A stretch of DNA of 20,380 nucleotides, from assembly GCA_034190465.1 (NCBI GenBank), contig JAXINV010000051.1, forward strand, positions 1 to 20,380, in the 5' to 3' direction. Positions 1,504 to 20,380 of the stretch are shown here, one piece after another. The notes below the pieces were generated by a model, which was given only the letters and a program-made list of their open reading frames with translations, was not told the origin of the DNA and ran no database searches. The position numbers were made by a program, and so were the translations under genes. Position 1 is the first letter of the stretch; the number at the start of each line of letters is the position of its first letter. The stretch comes from Candidatus Asbonarchaeum danakilense. GTDB lineage: Archaea; Nanohalarchaeota; Nanosalinia; Nanosalinales; Nanoanaerosalinaceae.

Positions 1504-1662
1504 ATGGCCAACAACGAACAGCAGATGCCCTCCTCCTTCGGCGGCCTCGTCCAATACTTCGACGAAGGTGAGCAAAAATTCCAGCTCGATCCCAAGGTCG
1601 TCACCGCCAGCGTCATCGGCGTCATCACCCTGGAGATCATCGTCAAACTCGCCGCAGGATGA
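1504..1662 (+). CDS. secG: Preprotein translocase subunit Sec61beta/SecG (52 aa)
   Basis: Hand translation MANNEQQMPSSFGGLVQYFDEGEQKFQLDPKVVTASVIGVITLEIIVKLAAG*. Shows the GGLVxYFDE..lxP motif and one C-terminal TM helix typical of archaeal Sec61beta. Below the ORF-track length cut-off. Confidence 0.9.
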   Translation: MANNEQQMPSSFGGLVQYFDEGEQKFQLDPKVVTASVIGVITLEIIVKLAAG

Positions 1663-1672
1663 TGACAGCAAA

Positions 1673-1896
1673 GGGCCCGTAGCTCAGCCTGGACAGAGCG
1701 CTCGGCTTCTACCTTAGGAGCGAACCCTTCCTCCCGAAGGTCACCATGGCCCCCTCCCTCGACTCCGTCTCAGTCGGGTCGGATCGGATTCGAGCGACCA
1801 TGGGAGCGAGAATGGAACCTTACCAGACTGAAACGGGAAGGACCTCCTATTTAGGGAGGGACCGAGTAGTCGAGGGTTCAAATCCCTCCGGGTCCG
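1673..1896 (+). tRNA. tRNA-Arg(UCU) with intron at 37/38 (exons 1673-1711 and 1861-1896)
   Basis: Acceptor GGGCCCG/CGGGTCC, D arm GCTC..GAGC, anticodon stem CTCGG/CCGAG with CT-TCT-A|A loop, T arm GAGGG-TTCAAAT-CCCTC, discriminator G1896. CCA is not directly encoded (TCACCA follows). Confidence 0.93.
1712..1860 (+). other. 149-nt tRNA intron with bulge-helix-bulge splice motif
   Basis: Central helix CTTC(1706-1709)/GGAG(1855-1858), 3-nt bulges TA|C and GG|A, then stems TAGGAG/CTCCTA and CCTTCCT/GGGAAGG. Confidence 0.88.
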
Positions 1897-1904
1897 TCAC
1901 CAAA

Positions 1905-1967
1905 GAGGGATTCTGAACCAGAGAAAACCTGTACCAGGTTTTCGACGTTCAAATCCCTCCGGGTCCG
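1905..1967. repeat. tRNA-derived hairpin element: antisense T-arm copy, inner palindrome and 21-bp direct repeat of the tRNA 3' end
   Basis: GTTCAAATCCCTCCGGGTCCG at 1876-1896 and 1947-1967. GAGGGATT(C)TGAAC 1905-1918 is the reverse complement of its first 13 nt with one extra base. GAAAACCTG-TAC-CAGGTTTTC at 1923-1943. Confidence 0.9.
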
Positions 1968-6337: not shown

Positions 6338-7230
6338 CTGCTCCCCTCTCCTCGTTCCTTTCCTCACTCGGAGTACCGGAGTCGATCGCTGGAGTCATGT
6401 CCTTCTGGATCTTCGACTCCCTGAAGATCCTGGCCCTGATGTCCGTCCTGTTCTTCGGACTGAACTACCTGCGAACCTACCTTACACCTCAGAAAATCAG
6501 CGAGTACCTTGAAAGGCATAAAACAGTCCAGTACCCGCTGGCCTCAGTTTTCGGAACACTGTCGCCCTTCTGCTCCTGTTCCACGATCCCGCTCTTCATG
6601 GGCTTCCTACGCGCAGGTGTATCTATAGGGCCGACGCTTACATTCCTACTGACTTCGCCCATAGTCAACCTTGTAGCGATCCCAATATTGCTGACAGCAT
6701 TTGGATGGAAGATAACACTGCTCTACACTGTCATAGGCCTGTCTATCAGCATGATAGCCGGTTTTTCACTAGAGAAACTTGGCTTCGAGAAAAATATCGA
6801 GCGAGGGGATGTAGCAGAGACAGCAGTAGACAACAGATGGAAAGAAGCCTACAGAGACACCTACGACCAGATGAAACGGTTCACACCGTACGTCCTCGTA
6901 GGCACAGCACTGGGAGCCTTGATCCACGGCTACCTACCGACAGACCTCCTCAAAAAATACGCCATCACAGTCTGGGCCATCCCTCTGGCAGTATTACTAG
7001 CGGTACCAGTCTACACCAACATCTTCGCCGTCATCCCTGTCGTCGAATCCTTGATGGCGAAGGGTCTGCCAGTCTCCGTAGCCGTAACATTCATGATGGC
7101 CGCTGCCGGTCTGTCACTCCCCGAGTTCATCATGCTGAAAGACGTGATGGACAACAAGATGCTCGGAGCACTGATAAGCGTCGTCACAGCCTCCATCGTC
7201 CTGACAGGATTCCTGATCCAGCTCGTCTAA
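6334..7230 (+). CDS. ArsP/DUF318-family permease
   Basis: About 8 TMs, PFCSCSTIP and FLLTSPIVN motifs, LSLPE in the second half. ATGA overlap with the thioredoxin gene. Confidence 0.9.
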   Translation: MTAPLSSFLSSLGVPESIAGVMSFWIFDSLKILALMSVLFFGLNYLRTYLTPQKISEYLERHKTVQYPLASVFGTLSPFCSCSTIPLFMGFLRAGVSIGPTLTFLLTSPIVNLVAIPILLTAFGWKITLLYTVIGLSISMIAGFSLEKLGFEKNIERGDVAETAVDNRWKEAYRDTYDQMKRFTPYVLVGTALGALIHGYLPTDLLKKYAITVWAIPLAVLLAVPVYTNIFAVIPVVESLMAKGLPVSVAVTFMMAAAGLSLPEFIMLKDVMDNKMLGALISVVTASIVLTGFLIQLV

Positions 7231-14164: not shown

Positions 14165-14863
14165 ATGGGAACAGATGACGTTCCACGCGTATCTTCAGGC
14201 GTCAAGGGACTAGACAACCTTATCGAAGGAGGCTTCCCGAAAGGGTCAGTGACACTGATCTCCGGTGGCGCTGGCTGTGGTAAGACCATCTTCTGCAACC
14301 AGTACCTCTGGGACGGCCTCCAGGAAGGCGAGAAGGTCCGGTACATCTCCCTTGAAGAGCCGGTGGACGACATCATGGGCGACGCAGAGGTCTTCGGCTG
14401 GGAGTTCCGCGACTACGAAGAGGACGGCCAGTTCAAGATCGACTACATCAAGCCCTCATCCGGTTCCCGCGGATTCATCGACAAGATCAACGAGATGGCG
14501 AGCGAGGAAGGCGTTTCCCGTCTCGTCATCGACTCGATTTCTGTCATGCTGGGCGCCTACGGAGGGACACAGGCGAAGAAGCGTGACAACCTGTACGACC
14601 TGCTCCGTAACATCAAGCGCGCAGGCCCGACCACGCTGCTGACATCCGAGATCCCGGAGAACGACGAGAAGGCACTGTCACGGTTCGGGGTCTCCGAGTT
14701 CGTCGCCGACGGCGTCGTCGTGCTGTACTACACCGGTGTCGGCGAGGGCACGTTCAGGAACCTTGAGGTCAGGAAGATGCGCCGTACCGACCATACACCG
14801 GGCACCCATCCATTCCAGATCACGGACCAGGGCATCAACCTGACAAGCGAGGCCGGCTTCTAG
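14165..14863 (+). CDS. KaiC-like / RAD55-family ATPase, single domain
   Basis: RVSSGVKGLD..GGFP, GGAGCGKT, SLEE, LVIDS, LLTSE, EFVADGVVVL, VRKMRRTDH. SD AGGTGA upstream. Confidence 0.93.
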   Translation: MGTDDVPRVSSGVKGLDNLIEGGFPKGSVTLISGGAGCGKTIFCNQYLWDGLQEGEKVRYISLEEPVDDIMGDAEVFGWEFRDYEEDGQFKIDYIKPSSGSRGFIDKINEMASEEGVSRLVIDSISVMLGAYGGTQAKKRDNLYDLLRNIKRAGPTTLLTSEIPENDEKALSRFGVSEFVADGVVVLYYTGVGEGTFRNLEVRKMRRTDHTPGTHPFQITDQGINLTSEAGF

Positions 14864-14902: not shown

Positions 14903-17143
14903 TCAGCCAGTCGGCGCGCCGGACACATCGAAGATCTTGATGCCTTCAGGCGTGATGTCGAACGGGAAGATCTCCACATCGTGGTCCGTCCGACGCATCT
15001 TCCGGATCGCCAAGGTCCGCTTGTGGTCCTCCGCGACCGGCACGAACTCCAGCAGTATGACCGTATCCACCAAGAACTCGATGATCCCGCCACCGGACAG
15101 ACCCTCCGACGTCTCCGGGACCGTTCCCGTCAGCAGCGCTGTCACGTCCGCTTCACGGAGCTTGTTCAGCAGCGAGGCCAGCGCCACCCGCGCCATGTAC
15201 TCGTCCCGGATGAACATCTCGATGATCGACACTGAATCGATGATAACGCGTTCCGCACCGATCTCCTCGACCGCCTCCATCACCTGATCCAGCAGGTTGG
15301 AGATGTACGACCGGACCAACCGGTTCAGGTTGTCGATCTCCTTGCTCGGAAAGATCGGCTTGATCGACAGGATCTTGACCAGTCCCTGCTCCTCCAGATC
15401 CTCAAAGCTCCAGCCGAACATGGCCTCGATGTCGGCGCGTATATCCTCCTGGCGCTCCTCGGTCGTCACATACACGCCGGGCTCGCCCTTGTCGGCACCG
15501 CCCTTCAGGAAGTTGGCGCAGAACGCGGTCTTACCCGTCCCTGTCTTCCCGGTGACGAGATTCATCGTGCCCTGAACGAACCCGCCCTGCATCTTCTCGT
15601 CCAGCCCCATCACACCCGTGCTGACACGCTCGACCTGCATGCTGGGCGGCAATTCCTCGGGCTCCTGCTCCTCCTCGGGCTCTTCCGCTTCCTCAGCCCC
15701 CTCAGATCCCTCAGGCTCTTCCACCTCCTCTTCCGGTTCCTCGGTTTCCTCTTTCTTCGACTTGCCGAAGATATGGTCGACGACCGACTTGAGCATGTTC
15801 TCGCCTTCCGGCTCTGCCCCCGCTTCCTCCCGCTCCTTCTCCTCGAACTCACGGACCTTACGCTCGACCTCGCTCTCCGCTTCGCCGGCCGGCTCAGGCT
15901 GACGTCCCTCCGCCTGGATCGGCTCCGTCTCCTGTACAGTCTCGGTCTCCTCGGCGGCCGGTTCCTCCTGTTCCGCCGCTTCCCCAGCCGTCCCGGAAGC
16001 CTCGCCGGACTCCTCCGGTTCAGGAGGCTCCAGCGGCTCTTCAGGCTTCTCGACAGTATCGGGTGTTTCCTCCGTCTCTTCAACCGGTTCAACCCCTCCT
16101 TCTTCTTCCTCGGCCTCAGATTCCTGTGGTTGTTCCTCTTCTTCACCGGCTTCTTCACGTTCCTCTCCCGTCTCACCCTCCGGCGGACGCTCAGGTTGGC
16201 GTTCCTCAGCAGGATGCTCGACAGAAGGTTCCTGCTCCTCGGTCGTCTCCTTCGGCTCGGCAGCCTGCTCCTCTGCGGGATGTTCCTCTTCCGACAGTGT
16301 TTCGGAGGGTTCTTCAGCTTCCTCCGCTTCAGAAGGCTGCTCCGGCCCTTCCGGTTGCCCCGCCGCTGTCTCTTCTGCATTCTCCTCTGTTTCCGTCGGT
16401 CGTTCCTCTGCTTCAGGGCCTTCCTGCGGTCGTTCTTCCTCCGTTCCTCCAGCCTCCTCACCGGCTTCTGGCTCCTCGACAGGAGGCCGCTCTGCTTCGG
16501 GCGGCTGGGACGACGGCTCTTCTTCGGCCTCCGACGGCCTCGCCTCAGCAGGTCGTTCAGCTGATGGCGGTTCCGCGGCCTCGACCTCCTGCGGCTCGCC
16601 CCTGTCGGCTGATTTGAGTTTCTCGTACTCCTCCTTCAACCGTTCAAGTATCTTTTTCTTCTCCTGTTTCTCGCCGGAGAGCTCCTCGTACTCCTCCTCC
16701 AGCTTATCCCACTGCTCCTCGGAGATCTCCTGCTCCGTCAGCTCCTCGACCTCCTCACGGATCTCACGGGGCGCGCCAGCGACCTTCCGCTCCGGCTCCT
16801 CCTCGACCTCGCCTTCCGGCATCGAGAGGATGTTCCCGATAGCCTCCTCGAAGATGATCCCCTGTTCCCGGTCCTCCGTCGTCAGGACGACCTCATCGTC
16901 GGGAGAAACAGTCCTGCCGTTCGCCTGGAACTCGATGGTATAGCTTTCCCCGGGTTCCAGGTGCATGTACTCCAGACCAACGTACAGTGGGCCGACGTAC
17001 ATCTTCACGAACTCGTAGAGCTTCGCGTCCCCGCCGTTACCGATCTCGAACCGGAAGTTGATCATGCCGTCCTCCCGGCTCACAGAAAACTCCTCAACCT
17101 CGAGAGCGGTCGTGGGGCTCAATGCTGGCACCTGGGTTAGCAA
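14903..17143 (-). CDS. KaiC-like / RAD55-family ATPase with long N-terminal extension (beta-rich domain, coiled coil, Glu/Pro-rich low-complexity region)
   Basis: C-terminal ~245 aa (14903-15640): RVSTGVMGLD, GKTGTGKT, TTEE, IIDS, EFLVDTVILL, IRKMRRTDH. The frame is open to 17143; GTG 17131 fits TATA spacing better. Confidence 0.88.
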   Translation of the reverse strand: MLTQVPALSPTTALEVEEFSVSREDGMINFRFEIGNGGDAKLYEFVKMYVGPLYVGLEYMHLEPGESYTIEFQANGRTVSPDDEVVLTTEDREQGIIFEEAIGNILSMPEGEVEEEPERKVAGAPREIREEVEELTEQEISEEQWDKLEEEYEELSGEKQEKKKILERLKEEYEKLKSADRGEPQEVEAAEPPSAERPAEARPSEAEEEPSSQPPEAERPPVEEPEAGEEAGGTEEERPQEGPEAEERPTETEENAEETAAGQPEGPEQPSEAEEAEEPSETLSEEEHPAEEQAAEPKETTEEQEPSVEHPAEERQPERPPEGETGEEREEAGEEEEQPQESEAEEEEGGVEPVEETEETPDTVEKPEEPLEPPEPEESGEASGTAGEAAEQEEPAAEETETVQETEPIQAEGRQPEPAGEAESEVERKVREFEEKEREEAGAEPEGENMLKSVVDHIFGKSKKEETEEPEEEVEEPEGSEGAEEAEEPEEEQEPEELPPSMQVERVSTGVMGLDEKMQGGFVQGTMNLVTGKTGTGKTAFCANFLKGGADKGEPGVYVTTEERQEDIRADIEAMFGWSFEDLEEQGLVKILSIKPIFPSKEIDNLNRLVRSYISNLLDQVMEAVEEIGAERVIIDSVSIIEMFIRDEYMARVALASLLNKLREADVTALLTGTVPETSEGLSGGGIIEFLVDTVILLEFVPVAEDHKRTLAIRKMRRTDHDVEIFPFDITPEGIKIFDVSGAPTG

Positions 17144-17182: not shown

Positions 17183-20100
17183 CTACTCAGAAGATTCGCG
17201 CTCAGCGACCATCTTGTTCCTCCTAGACTCGATCCACCTGTTGATCTCCCGCACAGCTTTGATCGGAGCCTTGATATAGTTCTCCGCCGTCAGTCTGCTC
17301 TTAATGGCGGTATCAAGCTCCTCCTGCAGTTCATCGCGCTCACTGCGCAGCTCAAGGATCTCATCCTGCCGCTCTGTCATGATATCCATGAACGTGTCCC
17401 GGTCGATCTGGCGCTTGAAGTACTGCCGCTCCGCCTTCTTCCTGGCCTGCGTCGCCGACTCCAGCTTCTCCTTGACAGTCAGGTAGTCGGTCCTGAGCCG
17501 GTAGTACGGTACTGCGACCATCGTCAGCAGGAAGAACAGCGTGTAGATGGCTATGCCACCGAACAGCCACTTCCACCAGTTCTCCAGCACATAGTTCTTG
17601 AAAGCCAGTGCCCGCAACTTGCCTTTGATCTCATTAGCCTTCGTGTCCGCTTGATCAAGGGTATTAGCCAGCACCTGGCGGTCATCCTGTGCTACCGCCT
17701 GTTCCGCGTAGCCTATCAGCTTCTGCAGACGCTGGTAGTCCTGCATCAGTGCCGAGGTATTGATCCCGGATCGTCGATAGTTCCTGATCTGCTGGACGAG
17801 CTGCTGGGCGCGCTGTTTCAGGTTCTCCAGTCGTCGTATGTCCGTGCCCTTCACCACTCGCATCTGTACCGTCTTTTCACGGACCCGGCCTCCGCTGGCG
17901 AACGAGAGTCCTGCGGTATACGAGCCAAGCGACGTATTGAGCGGTACATCCACGTTGATAGTCAGGCTCTTCTCCGACCCAGGTGTCAGCGTCACAGTAT
18001 CGACACGTGTTGACTCGTTACTGATCCATGCAGAACAGCACCGCCGGACCACTGCATCCACATCTATCTGAATCGACTCACTACCGTTGTTGTAGATGGA
18101 GAACGGTGCTTTGCCAACCGAGCCCTGCTCCACACCGGAACCGTCAGGTGGGATCGTGTCAGGGATGAACAGTCCGAAGCTGGCCACGGTCTCCGGCTCG
18201 ATGGAGAACACCACCTCCAGCGTCGCGTTGCCGCCTGTCGACTGCTGGCAGAATACGTTGTACCGGTACGTCCTGCCCGGCTGCGTCGACACCACGGCCC
18301 AGTGCAGCGTGCCGCCGGTCCGGTTGAACCGGTTCATCGCATCGACCCGGACGATGCTGAGCGAGCGGTTCGTGTAGCGGCAGCTCGCGGCCAGGTTCGT
18401 CGAGACCGACAGATTGACCTGCGACGTGTTCGACGGCAGTGAGACCTGCTGCGGCGACTGCTTCTCGATCTGGAACCTGGTGCCGAACCCACCGCCACCA
18501 CCGCCCCCGCCACCGGCACCGGTCCCGCCCGTGCCGGACTCGTTGCCTACGTTGATCGTGATGGCCGGAGCAGCTGAAAGCGGCCCCGAATCCTGGCTCT
18601 CCGTGTTGCCCTGCAGGTCTGAGGCGAACACGCGGATCAGCGCCGAATCATCGTCCTGCGGTGCCGTGAAGTTCTGTACAAACACACCACCGCCAGCAAA
18701 ATTCAGGAATTTGTACTGGCTGGGGCACTGCTCGCACCTGGCGTACATGATACCTTCGACGACTTCACCGTTCGGCCCCGTGATATTGACCCGGAGCCGG
18801 AACTCACTGCCCGGCGCGACCGTATCACCCTGCTCCGGGCTGAGGAACGAGACGTCCAGCAGTCGTGTCACGTTGAACGTGTAGGCCGTCCTTCCGATAT
18901 TTCCCGCCTTCGACACGTTGACATACAGCGTGTACTGCTTCGGTACCTCGGACGCCACCGGGGACGGTGGATCCGAGCGCTTGAACGTGTACTTGAAGAG
19001 GTCCTTGAACCCGTCATCGAACATCGTGACATTCGTCCCCGCCTTGTCCATGACGATCGTCGTGTTGTAGCCGTCGATGACATCGCCGTTCACGTCGCGG
19101 ACCGTGATATCGAAACTTCCCGTGTCCGCCTTCTTAAACAGCTGGCGGGCCGACGTCACGTTGACACTGAACTGCTCCTTGACATCGAACGAGTTCGAAT
19201 GGATCGTATCGTTGTTCAGCGCGATGTCCCACGCCCTGATCCTGTACGTGTAATGCCCCGTCTCACTGGTGTTCGTGAACCTGTACCGGTACGTGCCGCG
19301 GTCGACCTGCTCCATCGCCACCGGCGCCTCCGTGTAGTTCGAACCGTTGACCGGGTGCTGGACGACCAGCGTCAGGTTCTTCACAATCGAATTCTCCTCC
19401 ACCGTTGCGGTGATCGTCACCGGCTGGTTCTTGTTCACCTCGGAGGGTGACTCATCGTAGCTCGTGATGTTCGGCGCCTGCGCGTCCTCACCGACCACCG
19501 TGACGTTGATCGGGACATACAGCTGCTGGTCGCCGTTCGACGCGTTGACAGACAGGTTGAACACCGTCGAGCCAACATCCCTGCCGTTCAGCCCGTACGT
19601 CACACGAGTATCACCCGCCTCGTACGTCACGTTGCCGACATCCCGTCCCGGCGTCGCGTCCTGGAGCTCGATGACCGACGTATTGTTGACCGACGCGTTC
19701 GCCCACACATCGATCAAATCGCCCGTATCCGGCGTGATGCTCCACGACAACTGGTACGGCGAGGCGTCAAGCGGCAGCGTCAGGTGCGTCCCGTTGCCGG
19801 ACAGCGGCTCCGCGGCCAGCTGCCCGAAATCGATAGCGAACAGATTACGGGTCATGTTCGAGACCGTCACACCGGCGGTCACGGAGACGTTGACATCGTA
19901 GCTCCCGGAACGTGATGTGTTACCGTACACGACCGCATATTCGCTCGCCATTTCCGGCTCAAGCTGCATGTCAACCGTCTCGACGTAGGAACGTGGCTTC
20001 GTGATTTTCGCCACCACGTCCGTCGTCCTCGTGATGTTCCCCGAGACATTGACACCGATGACCACGTTGTCATCGATCGAGGTTGACTGTGGCGAGGCAT

Positions 20101-20380
20101 CGATCGTCGTCGACAACCGCCCGACCTCAAACGCTCCAGAGACGTTCGTTACGTTCAGGTTGCCGTACGTATCGTGGACGAACAGCTTCGTCAGGTTGTA
20201 GAATCCCTCGGCCTGCGTGCGGTTGAAGTCAGCTCGCCAGGTGCCGTCGACCGCAGTGCCTGTCAGCCGGTCCATCGTCGCGTTGACCAGGGCGCCTGTC
20301 GCGTTCCGCAGCGTCACGTTGATCGTCTCCACACCCAGGTTGTCACGTGCATCGACCTCTATCGGAACAGTGTCATTGAT
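17183..20380 (-). CDS. Very large membrane-anchored surface glycoprotein (5'-partial, >1065 aa)
   Basis: Frame stays open to the window edge (INDTVPIEVDARDNLGVETI...). Tandem beta-rich Ig-like segments, dense N-x-S/T sequons, Gly linker, coiled coil, TM (WWKWLFGGIAIYTLFFLLTMVAVPYY) and ~105-aa helical cytoplasmic tail. Confidence 0.88.
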   Translation of the reverse strand: MNDTVPIEVDARDNLGVETINVTLRNATGALVNATMDRLTGTAVDGTWRADFNRTQAEGFYNLTKLFVHDTYGNLNVTNVSGAFEVGRLSTTIDASPQSTSIDDNVVIGVNVSGNITRTTDVVAKITKPRSYVETVDMQLEPEMASEYAVVYGNTSRSGSYDVNVSVTAGVTVSNMTRNLFAIDFGQLAAEPLSGNGTHLTLPLDASPYQLSWSITPDTGDLIDVWANASVNNTSVIELQDATPGRDVGNVTYEAGDTRVTYGLNGRDVGSTVFNLSVNASNGDQQLYVPINVTVVGEDAQAPNITSYDESPSEVNKNQPVTITATVEENSIVKNLTLVVQHPVNGSNYTEAPVAMEQVDRGTYRYRFTNTSETGHYTYRIRAWDIALNNDTIHSNSFDVKEQFSVNVTSARQLFKKADTGSFDITVRDVNGDVIDGYNTTIVMDKAGTNVTMFDDGFKDLFKYTFKRSDPPSPVASEVPKQYTLYVNVSKAGNIGRTAYTFNVTRLLDVSFLSPEQGDTVAPGSEFRLRVNITGPNGEVVEGIMYARCEQCPSQYKFLNFAGGGVFVQNFTAPQDDDSALIRVFASDLQGNTESQDSGPLSAAPAITINVGNESGTGGTGAGGGGGGGGGFGTRFQIEKQSPQQVSLPSNTSQVNLSVSTNLAASCRYTNRSLSIVRVDAMNRFNRTGGTLHWAVVSTQPGRTYRYNVFCQQSTGGNATLEVVFSIEPETVASFGLFIPDTIPPDGSGVEQGSVGKAPFSIYNNGSESIQIDVDAVVRRCCSAWISNESTRVDTVTLTPGSEKSLTINVDVPLNTSLGSYTAGLSFASGGRVREKTVQMRVVKGTDIRRLENLKQRAQQLVQQIRNYRRSGINTSALMQDYQRLQKLIGYAEQAVAQDDRQVLANTLDQADTKANEIKGKLRALAFKNYVLENWWKWLFGGIAIYTLFFLLTMVAVPYYRLRTDYLTVKEKLESATQARKKAERQYFKRQIDRDTFMDIMTERQDEILELRSERDELQEELDTAIKSRLTAENYIKAPIKAVREINRWIESRRNKMVAERESSE

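Follow-up and report, generated by a model that had tools for sequence, protein, structure and literature searches.

Archaeal tRNA introns are removed by an established pathway in which EndA cuts the pre-tRNA at a bulge-helix-bulge (BHB) motif and RtcB ligates, and the intron of the euryarchaeal tRNA-Trp gene encodes a box C/D guide. Related intron sequence has been reported from tRNA genes of different isotypes in the Thermoproteales (Fujishima et al. 2010, as cited in PMC4090602), the mechanism of this transposition being described as unknown in the relevant passage of PMC4090602, and a 2026 preprint on Asgard archaea, in the text available, found no general route by which tRNA introns arrive (10.64898/2026.10.13.758758). 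In Caldiarchaeum, according to PMC3293823, a tRNA gene is disrupted by a 1.8-kb integrating element that encodes a recombinase. For two cultivated Nanohalarchaeota, introns are listed in 15 of 39 and 4 of 38 tRNA genes (PMC10266531). Aside from introns, REP and REPIN sequences are characterised in PMC3337134 as short, non-coding, imperfect palindromes that are multicopy, non-autonomous and found as inverted doublets with a spacer, and the PATEs and SMRs of the halophilic archaeon Haloquadratum walsbyi as transposase-free short mobile repeats with near-terminal palindromes, a conserved terminal oligonucleotide and nested insertion of hairpin modules (PMC3119063).

The DNA analysed here, referred to as the window, is a stretch of 20,380 nucleotides from Candidatus Asbonarchaeum danakilense. 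It is contig C18 of a 1.2-Mb, 92% complete genome (G000), for which a genome of the same genus (G001) served as the close comparison; repeat searches covered 70 genomes of the order, and the phylum-level search comprised the same 70. Its first feature is the 3′ part of an archaeal 23S rRNA gene, after which come RNase P RNA, a secG-like gene and tRNA-Arg(UCU). The intron of this tRNA gene is, in our judgement, probably a BHB-removed carrier of two copies of a non-autonomous mobile repeat, without a dedicated RNA function of its own. This repeat, a non-coding sequence of ~65 bp dispersed in the Nanohalarchaeota, contains two hairpins and has a single outer end that is sharply delimited.

By analogy with the systems above, the repeat would behave as a passenger of the REP, REPIN or PATE type within a normal BHB intron. 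It resembles the transposed introns of the Thermoproteales, as outlined in PMC4090602, in occurring across tRNA isotypes and in the requirement for a BHB, but it is a sub-intron unit, present singly or as inverted pairs, and also stands at start and stop codons outside tRNA genes. All the features just listed for REP and REPIN sequences recur in it, whereas no Y1/RAYT gene is present in G000 or flanked by the repeat, copies number tens at most rather than the hundreds given in PMC3337134, singlets are conserved at least as well as doublets, the main niche is the tRNA intron, and target duplications are long and variable. The listed features of PATEs and SMRs are likewise shared; unlike the present repeat, these are reported without target duplication, and the portion of PMC3119063 consulted does not mention tRNA introns. 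No link of the repeat to IS605 ends was seen at the six Y1 loci, and the PATE terminal sequences in tables S8 and S9 of that work may bear on kinship. A MITE reading is contradicted by the single repeat unit with unlike ends and by the lack of a fixed-length target duplication. Because there is no RAYT, no IS605 end and no terminal inverted repeat, the repeat is placed outside the REP/REPIN, PATE and MITE classes. Like the Caldiarchaeum element of PMC3293823, it links mobile DNA, tRNA fragments and intron gain, but it is ~65 bp long and non-coding. The Arg(UCU) intron itself is long, lies at 37/38 and would be removed at a BHB like the euryarchaeal tRNA-Trp intron, yet has neither a box C nor a guide. 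In the literature searched, from which most subscription journals are absent, neither the repeat nor nanohaloarchaeal introns built from repeats were found to be described.

Alignment to the Rfam tRNA model (E 1.2e-6) delimited a tRNA gene at 1673-1896 with an insertion after A37, which establishes the intron that the earlier note had proposed (Table 1). Its canonical BHB at 37/38 was confirmed as well: a 4-bp central helix with the pairs C-G, U-A, U.G and C-G lies between two 3-nt bulges and is adjoined by an inner helix of 2 bp. ARAGORN at default settings returned no gene for this tRNA; a relaxed run gave 719 calls, mostly false, and was discarded. Genes for EndA and RtcB are both present in G000, so that, with these enzymes acting on the BHB of the pre-tRNA, the passenger repeat would be removed. 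The EndA is a single 176-aa unit, which is probably of the type requiring a strict BHB, as far as the classification in PMC5829648 goes. In the folding model, the anticodon arm, when unconstrained, adopts a structure that has no BHB and is more stable by 6.3 kcal/mol than the one with it, which would count against easy splicing. Two sets of apparent intron-skipping joints (runs X1 and X2) were rejected, as they came from other tRNA genes or had unknown letters between the joined parts, on contigs not covering 1724-1858.

Table 1. Features of the tRNA-Arg(UCU) locus, in window coordinates.
Feature	Position	Strand	Basis or remark
Upstream secG / Sec61-beta gene	1504..1662	+	PF03911 E 2e-5, just below cut-off; syntenic in G001
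tRNA-Arg(UCU) 5′ exon, positions 1-37, anticodon TCT 1708-1710	1673..1711	+	Rfam tRNA alignment, stems checked
BHB 5′ half: central helix strand 1706-1709, bulge 1710-1712, inner helix 1713-1714	1706..1714	+	
Intron at 37/38, 149 nt	1712..1860	+	Rfam tRNA alignment, BHB check
First repeat copy	1713..1766	-	Covariance model E 8.6e-5, HMM E 1.3e-3; absent from training sets
Spacer between copies	1767..1785	.	Gap between both covariance-model matches
Second repeat copy	1786..1854	+	Covariance model E 2.4e-13 (copy in training set), pattern match
Hairpin 1 of second copy: 4-bp stem, then nested tandem GA/GA mismatches	1788..1813	+	Covariation, 18 copies
CTGA	1828..1831	+	Not a working box D by antisense and self-guide tests
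BHB 3′ half: inner helix 1853-1854, central helix strand 1855-1858, bulge 1859-1861	1853..1861	+	
tRNA-Arg(UCU) 3′ exon	1861..1896	+	Rfam tRNA alignment, stems checked
Flanking cassette: partial inverted T arm 1905-1918; 9-bp hairpin closed by GA/GA 1921-1945; 21-bp direct repeat of tRNA 3′ end 1947-1967	1897..1967	+	

Two covariance-model matches fall inside the intron, which is thereby shown to begin with a single nucleotide, followed by the inverted copy, the spacer and the forward copy, and to close with 6 nt completing the BHB; the copies are arranged head-to-head. The outer end of the first copy is 1 nt from the 5′ splice site and its inner hairpin has decayed, while the outer end of the second directly meets the central helix strand of the BHB and lies 6 nt away from the 3′ splice site. 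In the repeat generally, hairpin 1 combines a 4-bp stem with tandem GA/GA mismatches and often a three-base loop, and hairpin 2 has a 6-bp stem close to the outer end; the unpaired core between them is strongly conserved across three families. Among 18 copies, 8 of the 11 pairs display double changes, and the covariation score was 0.33 compared with 0.154 for shuffled and at most 0.145 for slid control structures. Since the structure was derived from the scored copies and these are related, the shuffle control overstates this covariation, which is taken as sequence-based support without a P value. Folding favours one strand only weakly (14 of 18 copies as RNA, 13 of 18 as DNA), and in the present pre-tRNA hairpin 1 has a low pairing probability of 0.04-0.07.

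The HMM yielded nine rows in G000 and none in the reversed genome. With 75 candidates scored per genome, the covariance model matched in 26 of the 70 genomes and gave no match in the other 44; G000 has 8 matches, of which this intron holds two, and no genome has more than 17. Mean column identity between copies is 51%, and no very recent jump is therefore demonstrated. A search of 41 genomes found the interior of the intron again in the G001 orthologue and in tRNA-Lys(UUU) and tRNA-Ser(UGA) introns of another family; a strict motif was also encountered beyond introns and, in a further intron, on the opposite strand. There are at least 10 doublet introns, the arrangement being common to G001 and at least eight others. 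When genome contigs were searched with the strict core pattern, four stretches emerged, two titled Nanohalarchaeota or Asbonarchaeaceae and two uncultured archaeon. The pattern was absent from viral contigs, and plasmids and phages gave no match to the repeat; 24 strict-core stretches in metagenome contigs, none with the repeat's flanks, were treated as chance.

The positions of the copies were surveyed in a census of 84 de-duplicated HMM rows, drawn from fetched loci and G000 and thus not a random sample, whose classes were corrected by eye. Introns account for 48 rows, equivalent to 47 copies in genes of 17 anticodons and 9 amino acids. Of the remainder, 13 rows are located at tRNA ends or at duplicates of these, 11 immediately precede a start codon, 5 stand at stop codons and 5 are enclosed by long direct repeats; 2 are probably chance. 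Ends of intron copies, which the automatic end finder had mis-set in 18 of the 48 rows and which were reset by eye, coincide closely with splice sites: the distance to the 5′ splice site is 0-3 nt for all 27 copies on the minus strand, and that to the 3′ splice site is 1-6 nt for 19 of the 20 on the plus strand, 12 of these 20 stopping exactly 2 nt before it as judged by eye. An end of the repeat thus lies at the splice site in 46 of 47 copies, and it is always the same end that faces host sequence. Doublets were found exclusively in introns, the copies seen elsewhere all being single. Five Trp introns that keep their guide also contain the repeat, which therefore colonises already existing introns; as judged from sequence, colonisation of old introns and not the creation of new ones is what is shown. 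A duplicated anticodon-arm remnant inside single-copy introns was ambiguous by eye.

Outside tRNA genes, a filled and an empty site could be compared at the rpl2-rps19 junction, the one locus for which this comparison is available. The spacer measures 95 nt in G000, where it contains the old start codon that was left behind, the repeat and a new start codon, versus 6 nt in G001; the repeat is present in 1 of 29 readable loci, with L215 left out. In other genera, L217, L219, L232 and L234 carry independent insertions upstream of rps19 at which the start codon is doubled, and hairpin modules are clear in three of the four. Direct repeats of ~20-55 bp flank L174, L176, L178, L118 and a copy on G000:C9, and target duplications overall vary from a few to ~55 bp. 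Uninterrupted start-adjacent copies are 1 nt shorter in all six cases tested, and each of the six forms a 9-codon ORF whose stop lies one base ahead of the next ATG, a property found in none of 26 other copies parsed (2 were not parsed). A stop codon occupies the same place at the end of four more start-adjacent copies, into which modules are inserted. This pattern fits selection for termination-reinitiation (PMC6728339); it may also represent one subfamily by descent.

Several readings in which the RNA itself matters were weighed against this. The excised 149-nt circle might have a function as an ncRNA, or the repeat might be an RNA motif that has been domesticated and is bound by a protein of the host; both the conservation of the unpaired core and the doublet shared by so many introns would suit such a role, as would the open frame kept in start-adjacent copies. 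There is no folding signal: the intron alone folds at -54.9 kcal/mol with a z score of -0.42, 66 of 200 shuffles being equally good, and as a circle at -48.7 versus -48.6 +/- 4.2 kcal/mol for shuffles. The rod-like structure of the earlier note survives insofar as all six named stem pairs exist in the sequence, but it is neither a favoured nor an unusual fold, reaching -36.2 kcal/mol as drawn and -47.7 with extra pairs allowed, about 8 kcal/mol worse than the best fold with the BHB enforced (-55.8). Under that constraint TAGGAG/CTCCTA is the sole well-supported stem (pair probability ~1), CCTTCCT/GGGAAGG reaches 0.34-0.64 and the inner stems at most 0.33; the CTCCC and CTCGA stems cannot both be complete because base 1758 is common to both. 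What had been drawn as nested stems is largely the two inverted repeat copies pairing together. Nor is the length out of the ordinary, as had been suggested: 149 nt ranks third among 16 parsed introns of G000, which span 37-265 nt. Absence of conserved structure or length among orthologues was named in the earlier note as the first of two observations that would speak against a stable circular ncRNA, and orthologous introns do vary in length (37-182 nt in 24 Arg(UCU) introns), in content (the core in 4 of the 24) and in presence (4 Arg(UCU) genes without an intron). A related strain keeps the intron with several indels and at least 15 substitutions, and no exon change, among the rows listed; its change at 1856 improves the BHB helix, and both partners 1790 and 1811 of hairpin 1 are altered to give a mismatch. 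Apart from tRNA, Rfam contained no family over 1712-1839 at E <= 5, with one chance-level match (E 2.4) overlapping the 3′ end of the intron, and no match to a group I or group II intron or another curated covariance model was obtained. The transcribed strand, moreover, differs by copy, and a functional ncRNA or domesticated motif is regarded as improbable. A degenerate box C/D guide resembling the tRNA-Trp intron appears more improbable still. Fibrillarin is encoded, guide-type introns exist in the lineage, and the earlier note was right in observing one CTGA and no clear box C, but the intron, in G000 as in G001, contains no box C within 2 mismatches, whether it is read linearly or through the junction of the circle, and base 1831 of the CTGA differs in the related strain. 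The complementarity to rRNA and tRNA that had been put forward for checking lies at shuffle level: the longest antisense to the 16S-23S of G001, used because family searches found no rRNA in G000, is 9 nt (shuffles 8-13), or 7 nt for the 12 nt before the CTGA, and to G000 tRNA exons 10 nt (shuffles 8-14). In a self-guide test, which scores the antisense run against the gene's own position 34, the run is 0 in this intron and at most 3 in the 24 Arg(UCU) introns, none of which is a self-guide, compared with 6-9 bp in 5 of 5 Trp introns; runs of at least 8 occur in 5 of 107 introns versus 0.04% of shuffles.

The removal of nested introns in two steps can be discounted to much the same extent. A UUU bulge at 1850-1852 adjoining the 2-bp inner helix gives a partial BHB look, yet it has no matching 3-nt bulge opposite and no 4-bp central helix, the folds contain no second BHB with two 3-nt bulges, and the strict BHB probably needed by a single-unit EndA (see PMC5829648 for the class) would not be provided. 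A more serious competitor, though still an unlikely one, is that the repeat moves as RNA: pieces of excised intron would be joined into other pre-tRNAs where EndA has cut these and would then be copied back into DNA, along the lines suggested for the transposition of whole introns. The clustering of ends within 6 nt of splice sites in 46 of 47 intron copies across 17 anticodons, the combination of one precise and one ragged end with variable-length duplications, as expected of retroposition, and the presence of RtcB all favour this idea. It is opposed by the 34 of 84 rows outside introns, many at start or stop codons without an evident BHB, by the occurrence of both orientations in pre-tRNA, and by the reverse transcriptase not found in G000. 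Among the readings offered in the earlier note, the remnant of a mobile intron comes closest, with the correction that the mobile unit is the ~65-bp repeat, which is present twice here and also exists outside introns. Other interpretations were dropped: hammerhead and group I readings had no Rfam support, and an H/ACA reading found no ACA at the 3′ end and no Rfam match.

Returning to the intron as a carrier of two repeat copies, we infer that the repeat is a non-autonomous mobile element whose insertion would join its outer end precisely and duplicate a variable stretch of target. Copies would survive only where this outer end leaves a host boundary working, and the boundaries tolerated would be the BHB of an intron, the end of a tRNA, a stop codon, and a start codon to which a short ORF leads in frame. 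Once excised, the intron would have no dedicated RNA function. As to the route of movement, a single-stranded-DNA step catalysed by a trans-acting HUH-like enzyme is tentatively preferred. Host recombination or conversion is possible but doubtful, an RNA intermediate somewhat more doubtful, and a route of another kind improbable. The tandem GA mismatches and short GNA loops on one strand are taken by us as pointing to a hairpin of single-stranded DNA. Searches of G000 (92% complete) yielded neither a Y1 nor an IS110 transposase and no reverse transcriptase; the genome encodes one tyrosine recombinase. Y1 genes were found in 4 of the 70 genomes, G000 not among them, the completeness of the genomes examined for Y1/RAYT genes being 61-99%, and the 6 Y1 loci of the order gave no match to the repeat. 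A bolder and rather unlikely version is that the repeat is an intron-seeding element which makes new tRNA introns at 37/38 and is moved by an enzyme not yet recognised. Its terminal four bases would then serve as a BHB helix strand or as a stop codon next to a start codon, and because they are usable in both ways, insertion would neutralise itself at the RNA level.

A single defined repeat thus connects the edges of introns with the ends of tRNAs and with start and stop codons, and close relatives offer sites both with and without it; it constitutes a concrete lead on the growth and spread of archaeal tRNA introns. Since some members of the phylum are in culture, according to PMC10266531, splicing and mobility are testable. 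For annotators, the locus is a warning that default tRNA scans miss such genes and that long structured introns are not necessarily ncRNAs.

Introns of other genes yielded observations of their own. Those of tRNA-Lys(UUU) on G000:C12, tRNA-Glu(UUC) on G000:C31 and tRNA-Lys(UUU) at L045 (G017) have a stretch of 8-11 nt complementary to the anticodon loop of their own tRNA, together with a box D-like tetramer in the position-34 register and a box C-like heptamer downstream, like Trp introns, and from sequence they are candidate intron-encoded C/D guides beyond Trp; three other Lys(UUU) introns are without this pattern. No literature report of Lys(UUU) or Glu(UUC) intron guides was found among the titles searched. 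In the tRNA-Ser(CGA) intron on G000:C10 the self-guide run is weaker (6 bp); it precedes a CTGA, and a box C-like motif lies downstream. The 265-nt intron of tRNA-Thr(CGU) on G000:C9 (L204), the longest parsed in the genome, contains a perfect box C-like heptamer and no repeat match. In the tRNA-Ser(UGA) gene of G017 (L031), an intron of ~315 nt combines a repeat doublet with several nested hairpin modules and ends in a 5-nt direct repeat of the anticodon loop. At L031, L086 and L109, all tRNA-Ser(UGA) introns, the BHB helix misfits the 37/38 register (1 of 4 pairs), and this BHB may be shifted by one base. Ile-UAU tRNA is rare in archaea; at ~6760-6935 (-) of G000:C11 (L205), a tRNA gene with the anticodon TAT has a long intron with a BHB and a repeat copy directly at its 5′ end. 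Cassettes similar to that at window 1897-1967 stand behind many tRNA genes of G000.

Elsewhere in the window, the 23S rRNA 3′ end (1-322) is without a 5S gene behind it, and in G001 (L240) the 16S and 23S genes lie directly upstream of the same RNase P-secG-tRNA block. The archaeal RNase P RNA at 1096-1430 scores 81.9 bits against a gathering score of 84 and has long insertions, with a 5′ part that matches poorly. Two KaiC-family ATPase genes are convergent, at 14165-14863 (+) and 14903-17143 (-), the N-terminal 500 aa of the latter being unannotated. An ORF of 1049 aa at 17183-20332 (-), with only a weak MG2 domain match, possibly encodes a surface protein.
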